Assembly (NCBI RefSeq): GCF_010367435.1
Contig: NZ_WJWY01000005.1
Coordinates: forward strand, 1 to 64,000
Origin: Fusobacterium sp. IOR10
Lineage (GTDB): Bacteria; Fusobacteriota; Fusobacteriia; Fusobacteriales; Fusobacteriaceae
Direction of reading: 5' to 3'
DNA: 64,000 nt
Positions within the stretch are counted from its first letter, which is position 1, and each line of letters opens with the position of its first letter. The notes beneath the pieces are model-generated. The model searched no databases. It had not been told where the DNA came from and was given only the letters and a program-made list of their open reading frames with translations. Both the position numbers and the translations under genes were made by a program. Below, piece by piece: positions 13,181-16,314 of this stretch.

Positions 13181-13831
13181 CTACCATTTTTCCACTGAAT
13201 AACTATAAATTATAAATTTGGAAAAAATATCAATAAATTTTTTCATATCTTCTATATCTTTTTTATCTAAAAAATTATCACTAAATTCAACATATTCACT
13301 CCAATTAAAGGACATGGCTAAATCTACAATTTTTGAATCTGGTATTTTTTTTAAAATATCCTTAAAGGAGAGTCTTAAAATTTCTATTTTATTTTCCTTT
13401 CTAAAATTTATTAAATAATCTCTTGTTAGAATTTCAATTGATTTTTTAAAACCTATACTAGCTATTTCATAAAGATTATATGTTTCTGATATTAAAGCTT
13501 GTCCGTAAACTTCTACAAATCTTTCTGAAATTTTTTTTAATTCCTTTGTATAATCTTTATAGTTTATTTTGTTTGTAATTTTATACTCTATTGGTTGGGG
13601 AATTTTGGTACCAAAGGGTAGTTTATAAGCCATTATAAAATATTTGCTGCATCTGGGGCATTGAGCTATTATGACAAATGTCCTTGTTTCCATATCTGTT
13701 TCGCTTATTGTAAGTACATAAGGTGCAATTCCATTATGGCAATGGGGACACTCATTAATTTTAGGAACATTATAAAATTTTTCTATTCCATTTACTTTTA
13801 CTGATAACCTCTCAAAAATATATTCTGACAT
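13181..13831 (-). CDS. Hypothetical protein with N-terminal Cys4 zinc-ribbon (CPHC...CPRC) and helical C-terminal domain
   Basis: 216 aa; two CxxC pairs about 30 residues apart, then a K/E-rich helical region. Borders the non-coding repeat/CRISPR-like island. Confidence 0.55.
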   Translation of the reverse strand: MSEYIFERLSVKVNGIEKFYNVPKINECPHCHNGIAPYVLTISETDMETRTFVIIAQCPRCSKYFIMAYKLPFGTKIPQPIEYKITNKINYKDYTKELKKISERFVEVYGQALISETYNLYEIASIGFKKSIEILTRDYLINFRKENKIEILRLSFKDILKKIPDSKIVDLAMSFNWSEYVEFSDNFLDKKDIEDMKKFIDIFSKFIIYSYSVEKW

Positions 13832-14181
13832 TTCTAAACTCCTTTAAATAAATTATCTTCCTCCAACTATTTTTTCTTATTGATTGCTATTAACAATTGT
13901 TACACAAATACTTTCATTTTCAAAGATTTGTATCTTAAAATTTACCTTTATTTTAAGCATTTAGATTATATCACAAAATTACAATTTTTTTTTATTTAAT
14001 TATTTATAACATCCTTTATTTTCATGTCATTAAAGATTATTCTTTGCTTTTTTAACTTAAGTTATTATTTCATTTCAATTGACAATCTTTTGTTTTATTT
14101 ATATTAATTCATAATTTTATTTTAATTTACCATTATAAAACATTTAAATTAAAAGGCATAAGATTTTAATTTTATTAAAAC

Positions 14182-14429
14182 AAAAAAAGAAAACCTTTAA
14201 TTTTTCAAGGCTTTCTTTTTTTATTGATTAAAGTTTAGGGTAGGAAACTCTTTAGTTTGACTAGAACAGAAGAGTTAACAAAATTTGATTTATTTTGTAC
14301 AAAGAAATAGTATCATAAAAAGATTTGAAAGTCAAACTATTTGTTTGTATTAATTAAATAATTCCATTATCTATGGAATAGTTCATACTTATTCTAGTAT
14401 TCTCTCTAGAATTTATTAATTTAAAGAAT
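14182..14429. repeat. Non-coding tandem module A (248-bp unit): terminator hairpin plus conserved 36-nt box
   Basis: Hairpin aagaaaacc...ggctttctt + T7 at 14187-14222. The box atagtatcataaaaagatTTTGAAAGTCAAACTATTT at 14307-14342 matches module B at 31/36 positions, and the spacing is identical (terminator to terminator 248 bp, box to box 248 bp). Confidence 0.5.
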
Positions 14430-14620
14430 AAAAAAAGAAAACCATTTTATTCAAAGGTTTTCTTTTTTTTATAAATCAATGTTAAGAAAGGAGATCCTAA
14501 AGTTTATTAAAAATTAGGACTTTTATAATTGAAACTATCCATCACCACAAGATAATAGTATCACAGAATAATTTGAAAGTCAAACTATTTATTCCGCCAT
14601 AACATTAATTGTGTATCTAA
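14430..14620. repeat. Non-coding tandem module B (second copy), immediately adjoining the CRISPR-like array
   Basis: Hairpin aagaaaacc-attttattcaaa-ggttttctt + T8 at 14435-14470. Box atagtatcacagaataatTTTGAAAGTCAAACTATTT at 14555-14590. Confidence 0.5.
14435..14470. terminator. Bidirectional intrinsic terminator (module B), positioned to stop a minus-strand array transcript
   Basis: Perfect 9-bp GC-clamped stem flanked by an A-run (5') and a T-run (3'). Module A carries the equivalent hairpin at 14187-14222. Confidence 0.5.
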
Positions 14621-14785
14621 ATTTATATTCCACATTGGTTAGATTAAAAGTAAAATCTATGAAATTTATAAGATAATAGAAGAAGTATTTACATTCCACA
14701 CTGGTTAGATTAAAAGAATTTTTAGCTGGTTCTGTAACAACTGGTTCTGTAACAAATTTACATTCCACACTGGTTAGATTAAAAG
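14621..14785 (-). CRISPR. CRISPR-like mini-array: 3 repeats (30 nt), 2 spacers (36 and 39 nt); type I-B-like repeat; no cas genes in the window
   Basis: Repeats at 14621-14650 (atttaTattccacaTtggttagattaaaag, 2 mismatches), 14687-14716 and 14756-14785 (atttacattccacactggttagattaaaag, identical). The reverse complement CTTTTAATCTAACCAGTGTGGAATGTAAAT ends in ...TGTGG-ATGTAAAT like clostridial type I-B repeats. The degenerate repeat is distal to the putative leader at 14786-14928. Confidence 0.55.
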
Positions 14786-14832
14786 AGGTATACTTATAAC
14801 CTCATTAAAATTATAGCATAATAATCCTATTT

Positions 14833-14894
14833 CTGTCGACCCCTTAAATTTTTCTATTTTTCCATATAATTTTTACACTGTTAGAGGTCGACAG
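14833..14894. promoter_or_regulatory. GC-rich 9-bp inverted repeat (ctgtcgacc ... ggtcgacag) with a 44-nt AT-rich spacer, in the putative array leader / tldD 3' region
   Basis: A perfect 9-bp dyad in an otherwise AT-rich intergenic stretch. There is no U-tract, so it is not a canonical terminator. Confidence 0.35.
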
Positions 14895-14928
14895 CTTTAT
14901 ATTATTTAATTATTTTCTTGTGTATTCT

Positions 14929-16314
14929 CTACTTTTCTCTTCCACCAACTAAGACGTTCCTAATTTTTATAGAGGGTTGCCCCACATTAGTTGGGACACT
15001 TCCAGAAACTGAACCACACATTCCTTGTCCATATCCTAAATTGTTTCCAACCATGTCAATTTCCTTTAAAACTTCTCCACCATTACCTATTAAAGTTGCT
15101 CCTCTAACAGGTTTTGTTATTTTCCCATCTTCTATTAAATAACCTTCCATAACTGCAAAATTAAAATCTCCTGTGGCAGGATTAACTGATCCCCCTCCCA
15201 TATATTTTGCATACAGTCCTTTTTTTGTACTTTTTATCATTTCTTCAAGTGTTGATTCCCCATTTAAAATAAATGTATTTGTCATTCTTGAAGTGGGAGC
15301 ATATTTATAAGATTCCCTTCTTCCACTTCCTGTGGATTCCATTCCCATTCTTCTTCCATTTAGTTTGTCAATCATGTATCCCTTTAAAATTCCCTTTTCA
15401 ATTAGAATGTTTCTTCTAGTTTTAGTACCTTCATCATCAACTGTTAAACTTCCCCATTCATTTTTTAAAGTTCCATCATCAACAAAAGTTACAAGGGAAC
15501 TTGCTATTTTTTCTCCTATTTTCCCAGCAAATATAGAGTTTCCCTTGGCCACACTTGTAGCTTCTAGTCCATGACCACATGCTTCGTGAAAGATAACTCC
15601 TCCAAATTTGTGATCAATTATTACTGGCATTTTTCCACTTGGACAATAATCTGCATAAAGCATTGTTTTAGCTATTCTTGAAGCTTCTCTAGCATAACTT
15701 TCAACATCTAAATCCCTTAGAAATTCAAATCCCATTGAAGCACCTGGACTCATTCTTCCAGTTTGCATTTCTCCATTTTCTTCAGCTATACTTTCAATAC
15801 TTATTCTACTTCTAATTCTTTCATCTTCAGTGTATAACCCTTCACTATTTGCAATTATTACCTCTTGTTTCACATCTGAATATGAAACTCTCACTTCATT
15901 TATAATAGAATCATAATTTTTAGCTGCATTGTAAGCCTTTCTCATTATATGAACCTTTTCACTTTTCTTTACATCCTCAGGATATATTTCAATTTCATTT
16001 ATATTTTGAAACTTCACTTCATTTAAATCAATGTTTACATCTTCCTTTATTCCTTCTATGGATTTAGATAATTTTTTTGCTGAATTTATTAAACTGTCCT
16101 CTTCCATATTATTAGTATATCCATAAACAGAATAAACTCCTTTAAATATCCTAATTCCCATACCAAAATCTTTTCCAGAATTTGATGTTTCTAGTTTTCC
16201 TTCAGTCATAAAAAGACTACTAACTCTCTTTTTTTCTATGAAGATTTCTGCAAAATCTCCCCCTGTGGATAGAGCTTCCATTAAAATTTTATTTAATAAT
16301 TTTTTATTTATCAT
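14929..16314 (-). CDS. tldD: TldD/PmbA family metallopeptidase
   Basis: 461 aa; the HEACGHGLE zinc motif and Gly-rich C-terminal beta region typical of TldD/PmbA. Only one member of the usual pair is present here. Confidence 0.8.
   Translation of the reverse strand: MINKKLLNKILMEALSTGGDFAEIFIEKKRVSSLFMTEGKLETSNSGKDFGMGIRIFKGVYSVYGYTNNMEEDSLINSAKKLSKSIEGIKEDVNIDLNEVKFQNINEIEIYPEDVKKSEKVHIMRKAYNAAKNYDSIINEVRVSYSDVKQEVIIANSEGLYTEDERIRSRISIESIAEENGEMQTGRMSPGASMGFEFLRDLDVESYAREASRIAKTMLYADYCPSGKMPVIIDHKFGGVIFHEACGHGLEATSVAKGNSIFAGKIGEKIASSLVTFVDDGTLKNEWGSLTVDDEGTKTRRNILIEKGILKGYMIDKLNGRRMGMESTGSGRRESYKYAPTSRMTNTFILNGESTLEEMIKSTKKGLYAKYMGGGSVNPATGDFNFAVMEGYLIEDGKITKPVRGATLIGNGGEVLKEIDMVGNNLGYGQGMCGSVSGSVPTNVGQPSIKIRNVLVGGREK

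Follow-up and report, generated by a model that had tools for sequence, protein, structure and literature searches.

The question raised by a short intergenic region of Fusobacterium sp. IOR10 is what two near-copies of a hairpin and a box, set at equal distances beside a CRISPR array, represent. The region lies within the 64,000-nucleotide stretch of DNA analyzed here (hereafter called the window; 30% G+C across its length), where the two copies and the array occupy the 1.1-kb gap between a TldD/PmbA peptidase gene, identified by a Pfam scan and 100% identical to that of Fusobacterium sp. IOR10, and an ORF of 216 amino acids, both on the minus strand (Table 1). No cas family was detected among 56 window ORFs scanned with PADLOC or among nine neighbouring ORFs with Pfam, and the 216-aa ORF and a neighbouring ORF of 196 aa belong to no family in Pfam or NCBIfam. 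The 216-aa ORF carries a CPHC motif; at one related locus (L013, 6167-7000) it is called as three pieces of 113, 111, and 53 aa and may be a pseudogene there. A first-pass annotation had read the region on the plus strand, proposing that a terminator-box-array unit had been duplicated precisely, at 248 bp, with later decay of one of the two arrays.

The anchors on which that reading was built are sound. The hairpins, marked by AAAAAAAGAAAACC at 14182 and 14430 with reverse-strand partners at 14209-14222 and 14456-14469, are exactly 248 bp apart as described, and AAAAAAAGAAAACC is itself enriched, with four sites in 64 kb where 0.42 would be expected. The boxes at 14307 and 14555 show the same spacing, with an identity of 32 of 36 positions rather than the 31 originally counted, and the 19-mer TTTGAAAGTCAAACTATTT does occur exactly twice in the window (14324 and 14572). 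Homology of the two units was likewise confirmed: an offset of 248 gives the best block identity of all offsets between 200 and 299, and in register the copies agree at 117 of 248 positions, compared to 75.8 ± 7.5 for other 248-mers of the window. Conservation is selective, as had been noted, with some parts kept and others diverged.

The similarity nevertheless does not span the whole 248 bp, as the duplication would have it, and is limited to the segment from the box to the hairpin, identified below as promoter and terminator. The hairpin-to-box stretch is weakly similar between copies (z = 1.95, p about 0.04), and the sequence beyond the box, occupied in copy 2 by the terminal repeat of the array and a portion of a spacer, shows no significant similarity (z = 0.76, p = 0.23). 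The two anchors share their 248-bp spacing because the distance from box to hairpin is 120 nt in both units. The supposed decayed repeat, ATTCCATTATCTATGG, is part of a palindrome (ATTCCAT-tatct-ATGGAAT, 14361-14379) and is absent from the repeat-like matches; with no significant similarity in the region equivalent to the repeat, a duplicated array that later decayed finds no footing. The pair also does not look like a REP- or MITE-like dispersed repeat, there being two copies in 64 kb and 12 single matches of an exact 20-mer among the GTDB species representatives.

Orientation of the array is central to how its neighbours are read. Its direction was taken from the loci of strains whose PmbA is 97-99% identical to that of the window. 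A leader is kept beside PmbA at L013, L017, L019, L035, and L036, and the leader-proximal spacers vary by strain. The promoter scan places a leader promoter at 14839->14810 (TCGACA-18 nt-TATAAT with an upstream TG; 11/12 match to consensus). At the opposite end, the terminal repeat of the window is degenerate, as is the last repeat in every strain compared, and the spacer farthest from the leader and PmbA is common to L017 and L019. Spacers number one in L017, two in L013 and the window, and seven in L019. Judged by these comparisons, the array is polymorphic and is read on the minus strand, with its leader beside PmbA/TldD; therefore, the units sit beyond its trailer end, past the degenerate terminal repeat, and the proposal of a leader or anti-leader element is not sustained. 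It is important to note that a conserved "box" beside a CRISPR array can be misread if the direction of the array is not established first.

Several further features of the array and its surroundings were recorded. Neither spacer of the window matched the viral contig collection exactly, and within the one at 14717-14755 a 13-nt sequence, GTTACAGAACCAG, is directly repeated. An inverted repeat, CTGTCGACC...GGTCGACAG, frames the leader. Compared with the leaders of L013 (5440-5540), L017, L019, L035, and L036, that of the window is missing about 80 nt at 14840-14900, a segment bounded by AAAAATTA and the following TGGAAAAA and including a second copy of GATCGACAG. Just downstream of the hairpin of unit 1, at 14125-14155 on the minus strand, CTTTTAATTTAAATGTTTTATAATGGTAAAT aligns with the CRISPR repeat from one end of the repeat to the other, with 20 of 30 positions identical and both ends conserved. 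Its score falls only at the 95th percentile of the null distribution, and neither L013 nor L017 keeps its 3' half; a very ancient remnant of a repeat and a chance resemblance are both conceivable.

Read on the minus strand, each box has the order AAATAGT-TTGACT-(17 nt ending in TG)-n-TACTAT, the AAATAGT element being conserved just upstream of the -35 hexamer in both. The two copies differ in the promoter spacer and are identical in the hexamers, the TG, and the 5' flank. The same pattern holds across the six family members described below, in which the hexamers are invariant and the spacer is variable, with the proviso that two of them (L023 unit A and L026) were found by a pattern requiring the promoter hexamers, so that hexamer conservation there is partly a selection effect. 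A promoter scan of this AT-rich region returned 13 sites, compared to 9.2 ± 3.5 in shuffled sequences, which is not significant alone. An instructive parallel comes from Rummeliibacillus (L002), where identical -35 and -10 hexamers with the same 17-nt spacing immediately precede a SAM riboswitch. The box is thus most likely a strong sigma-70-type promoter on the minus strand, as predicted from these motifs. The plus-strand reading is thereby reversed, with the hairpin downstream of the box, and the suggestion that the box is an sRNA seed is not supported, the box lying upstream of the predicted transcript. The idea of a protein operator fares better: a palindrome, TTTGA-CTT-TCAAA, overlaps the -35 hexamer and makes an operator possible there, and, more speculatively, the palindrome and AAATAGT together may form a regulator site.

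A partial match to the box 19-mer (16/19, in inverted orientation) was seen at 13906-13924 on the minus strand, upstream of the 216-aa ORF. It overlaps a weak promoter-like site (13923->13896); about 0.18 such matches are expected, and it is probably due to chance.

The hairpins lie about 120 nt downstream of their boxes, each set between an A-tract and a T-tract. In fold predictions both form strong structures, an A/U-rich stem of 14-16 pairs with two G-C pairs at its top followed by a tail of seven to eight U residues, which bears out their earlier description as terminator-like; because of the A-tract, they are terminator-like in both directions. A simple terminator scan made no report at either hairpin, whose stems have only two G-C pairs (fewer than three). 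Most likely, each hairpin is the intrinsic terminator of its own unit, a prediction drawn from fold and position, and the first terminator probably would also stop read-through transcripts from the CRISPR array.

From the readings of box and hairpin it follows that each unit would yield, between its promoter and its terminator, a transcript of about 119 nt (Table 1). Both predicted RNAs begin with a 5' part that varies, after which come a central hairpin, an unpaired C/U-rich stretch, and the terminator, and the consensus of an alignment of six sequences retains one central hairpin, the unpaired stretch, and the terminator. In that alignment the central hairpin is 86% paired, and six of its 11 pairs have changed on both sides, compared to none or one in slid controls; with about four of the six sequences independent and the structure derived from the same alignment, this is modest evidence. 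A covariance model found exactly two full copies in the 64 kb, scoring 119.6 bits (sRNA 1) and 112.3 bits (sRNA 2), and all its other matches in the window cover the terminator only. The element GAGTTTCCTACCCTAAACTT is identical in three copies that have differing 5' parts.

Table 1. Predicted and observed features of the region, in window coordinates
Feature	Position	Strand	Description
216-aa ORF	13181-13831	-	
Predicted sRNA 1, ~119 nt	14182..14300	-	Supported by fold (z -6.0), covariance model, and the L023 match
sRNA 1, parts		-	5' hairpin; central hairpin 14276->14246 (AACUCUU/AAGAGUU); unpaired UCCUACCCUAAACUUUAAUCAAU 14245->14223; terminator 14222->14182 with U-run
Box 1, predicted promoter of unit 1	14299..14345	-	-35 TTGACT 14335-14330; 17-nt spacer ending TG; -10 TACTAT 14312-14307
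Inter-unit stretch	14343..14429		Short palindromes 14361-14379 and 14392-14411; not significantly similar to its unit 2 counterpart
Predicted sRNA 2, ~119 nt	14430..14548	-	Supported by fold, covariance model, and orthologues in L017 and L019
sRNA 2, parts		-	Central hairpin 14520->14494 (GUCCUAA/UUAGGAU); unpaired CUCCUUUCUUAACAUUGAUUUAU 14493->14470; terminator 14469->14430, then U-run
Box 2, predicted promoter of unit 2	14547..14593	-	-35 TTGACT 14583-14578; 17-nt spacer ending TG; -10 TACTAT 14560-14555
CRISPR array	14621..14785	-	Three 30-nt repeats CTTTTAATCTAACCAGTGTGGAATGTAAAT at 14756-14785, 14687-14716, and 14621-14650 (terminal)
Array spacers	14717-14755 and 14651-14686		
CRISPR leader	14787..14928	-	From the PmbA/TldD stop to the first repeat
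TldD/PmbA peptidase gene	14929-16314	-	Pfam scan

Coding potential and known RNA families were considered alongside the structural data. Neither the ORF list nor the alignment reveals an ORF shared by the copies: the ORFs of at least 20 aa in unit 1 all have their starts within the promoter or upstream of it, unit 2, the array set aside, has none, and the indels between copies are not multiples of three. No Rfam family was found at gathering thresholds in the whole window, at E values up to 10 in 13800-14950, or on L017, L023, and L026, the sole output being weak terminator-type and CRISPR-repeat matches. Based on these properties, the region probably holds two tandem sibling sRNA genes on the minus strand, each with a predicted promoter and terminator of its own. 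They would most likely belong to a small, undescribed, fusobacterial sRNA family, making the feature unannotated but ordinary in kind.

Relatives at other loci bear on the age and independence of the pair. A metagenome scan with the pattern TTGACTTTCAAA-N8-TGATACTAT returned nine loci, two of them true relatives (L023 and L026). L023 carries two units in tandem, 365 bp apart, with ordinary ORFs upstream. Its unit B (1945-2063), truncated at the edge of the contig, shares 87.5% identity with window unit 1, which is about 72% identical to the other L023 unit, A; the 3' part of unit A (TTAACATCAATTTAT plus terminator) is in turn common to window unit 2, so that a unit-2-like copy followed by a unit-1-like copy recurs there. 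The single unit of L026 carries GAGTTTCCTACCCTAAACTT just as unit 1 does, with no co-directional ORF of at least 30 aa after it. No CRISPR repeats were found on either contig. Unit 1 is therefore closer to a unit on a CRISPR-free contig than to its own neighbour, to which it is weakly similar outside the anchors; this argues against a precise local duplication and for an old pair from a dispersed family. Just upstream of the tandem units of L023, a short frame at 1283-1497 that ends ...IQEKHIKHSNMVGFASYL resembles, by eye, a HicB-type antitoxin.

Other collections added little to this picture. Among GTDB species representatives, the 20-mer AAATAGTTTGACTTTCAAAT gave 12 single matches in unrelated taxa, mostly in ordinary promoters; the absence of any Fusobacterium match is explained by box variants that differ at the last base, which an exact scan misses. 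The box 19-mer AAATAGTTTGACTTTCAAA gave three matches in viral contigs, in unrelated contexts, and the plasmid and phage collections yielded nothing relevant. At L032 (2343-2480) and L034, the 19-mer AAATAGTTTGACTTTCAAA is followed about 120 nt downstream by the 12-mer TTTCCTACCCTA, which also occurs in sRNA 1. The resemblance was judged to be most likely chance (rough p about 0.1), there being no correctly spaced -10 hexamer and no covariance-model match.

Closely related strains differ in how much of the pair they carry. Where PmbA is 97-99% identical, the number of units is zero in L013, one in L019, one plus an extra terminator in L017, and two in the window. L019 has unit 2 only; in L017, unit 2 leads directly into the terminator of unit 1, the promoter and body of unit 1 being missing; and L013 retains its array but no box, with about 12 nt resembling the 3' end of the unit body followed by a terminator. 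L016, L018, L037, and L038 (PmbA 98-99% identical) have neither the array nor the sRNA units nor the 216-aa ORF. In their place, PmbA is followed in L038 by a serine recombinase gene, to which the sequence after PmbA in L016 and L018 matches, and in L037 by an ORF of 726 aa. Species with 85-86% identical PmbA have no array at the site. As these comparisons indicate, a variable island or integration hotspot lies downstream of PmbA/TldD. The units are dispensable, since one or both have been lost in strains of the same species. Deletions between the near-identical terminators of an old pair, rather than a recent precise duplication, would account for the variation.

The same variability lends itself to a different explanation, in which the units are functionless, decaying relics, promoter and terminator fragments in a recombination-prone island where repeated terminators drive deletions and duplications. 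Unit numbers from zero to two among strains with 97-99% identical PmbA and a hotspot occupied elsewhere by a recombinase gene or a 726-aa ORF are in keeping with it. Relics would not, however, be expected to keep the hexamers, a central hairpin with compensatory changes, the C/U-rich stretch, and the transcript length at unrelated loci, or an identical GAGTTTCCTACCCTAAACTT in three copies despite differing 5' parts, and this explanation is considered unlikely. The 248-bp duplication of a terminator-box-array unit, with the box as an operator or leader-type element, retains in its favour the exact spacing of both anchors and a second copy that abuts a CRISPR repeat. That repeat is the degenerate terminal one, the array leader and its promoter lying next to PmbA where the spacers vary; the corresponding segment of copy 1 resembles neither the repeat nor the spacer of copy 2 (z = 0.76), no significant repeat-like sequence is present at 14360-14425, related units exist without any CRISPR repeat, and L013 has an array without a box. 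Almost no weight can be given to the duplication.

Co-directional promoters, terminators, and a downstream 216-aa ORF would also suit a cis-acting leader or attenuator, with the box promoters driving the ORF and the hairpins serving as regulated terminators. Yet the ORF has its own upstream region of about 350 nt, including TTGTAA...TGTGATATAAT, which is kept in the box-less L013; the first unit of L023 is followed by another unit and that of L026 by no co-directional ORF of at least 30 aa; and neither an alternative antiterminator fold nor an Rfam leader was found, which leaves such a role very unlikely. There is precedent for small transcription units beside CRISPR arrays (PMC5961336; bioRxiv 10.1101/2023.03.03.530964), and the units could on that ground be taken for a type I toxin-antitoxin or small-peptide module, a CRISPR-derived regulatory RNA (CreA/CreR/CreT), or a tracrRNA-like RNA. 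A toxin or peptide is at odds with copies that have no ORF in common and indels that are not multiples of three. For the RNA variants, repeat or anti-repeat matches within the units score at most 14 on either strand against a null mean of 20.2, the sole full-length repeat look-alike (14155->14125, 20/30) falls beyond the unit boundaries, the terminal spacer is not conserved between strains, and no cas gene was detected among the window ORFs scanned. The whole group is accordingly regarded as highly improbable, and two sibling sRNA genes remain the preferred reading.

How such sRNAs would act can be outlined in conditional terms. The unpaired C/U-rich stretch would pair with G-rich ribosome-binding regions of mRNAs encoded elsewhere, with UCCUACCCUAAACUU (unit 1) and CUCCUUUCUUAACAU (unit 2) as candidate seeds, and pairing would change the translation or stability of the target mRNA. 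Other fusobacterial sRNAs use C-rich seeds in this manner. In sRNA 2, the unpaired CUCCUUUCU probably corresponds to the 3' tail of 16S rRNA and would accordingly be expected to pair with ribosome-binding sites. Shared transcriptional control of the units is suggested by sequence near the -35 hexamer that is specific to the family. Transcription, pairing in trans, and co-regulation of the units are what we infer from sequence. When seed duplex energies were computed against the 70 translation-start regions of the window, no target was singled out; the 216-aa ORF, by its 5' region, came 49th of 70 for one seed and 30th for the other, no better than for shuffled seeds. The trans-acting base-pairing role proposed for both RNAs would be analogous to that of the C-stretch seeds of FoxI/FoxJ (PMC11005410) and to sibling sRNAs in general (PMC4211561). 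Fusobacterium is without the common RNA chaperones Hfq, ProQ, and CsrA, and its RNA regulators are sparsely charted (PMC11039985). There is only a slim chance that the pair is tied to CRISPR immunity, being kept at trailers and regulating cas or phage-response genes in trans, or that sRNA 2 competes in a general way for ribosome-binding sites. Although unusual, the position at a CRISPR trailer is apparently incidental, and the units reveal no new CRISPR component.

Among systems described at CRISPR loci, the type I toxin-antitoxin modules by type I-B arrays of C. difficile (PMC5961336) resemble the window units in being small, independently transcribed units of a low-GC anaerobe, a property that is here predicted from sequence; unlike those modules, the window units contain no toxin ORF and no convergent antisense pair. 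CreA/CreT, CreR, and mini-arrays (bioRxiv 10.1101/2023.03.03.530964, 10.1101/2023.03.10.532045) are likewise small RNA genes at CRISPR loci, but the window units have no repeat-like sequence, spacer-like promoter match, or nearby cas genes, and their relatives occur away from CRISPR. Within the fusobacteria, C-stretch seeds have been reported for the F. nucleatum sRNAs FoxI and FoxJ, which, compared by description, share with the window units, as predicted here, an intergenic location, a C-rich seed, and an intrinsic terminator (PMC11005410). Both are sigma-E dependent (PMC11005410), whereas the window promoters look to be of the housekeeping type. If expressed, the window units would represent an undescribed Fusobacterium sRNA family with paralogues that vary in number between strains.

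Tandem sibling sRNAs are known from several bacteria, including LhrC1-4 of Listeria and the csRNAs of Streptococcus. A further example is NgncR_162/163 of Neisseria (PMC9973317, PMC13104608; review PMC4211561). The window units have no sequence similarity to any of these and no Rfam match, and, unlike them, they are dispensable between strains. The likeness lies in their organization: homologous genes stand side by side, each with a similar promoter and intrinsic terminator of its own, and their predicted RNAs combine conserved 3' parts and C/U-rich single-stranded stretches with more variable 5' parts.
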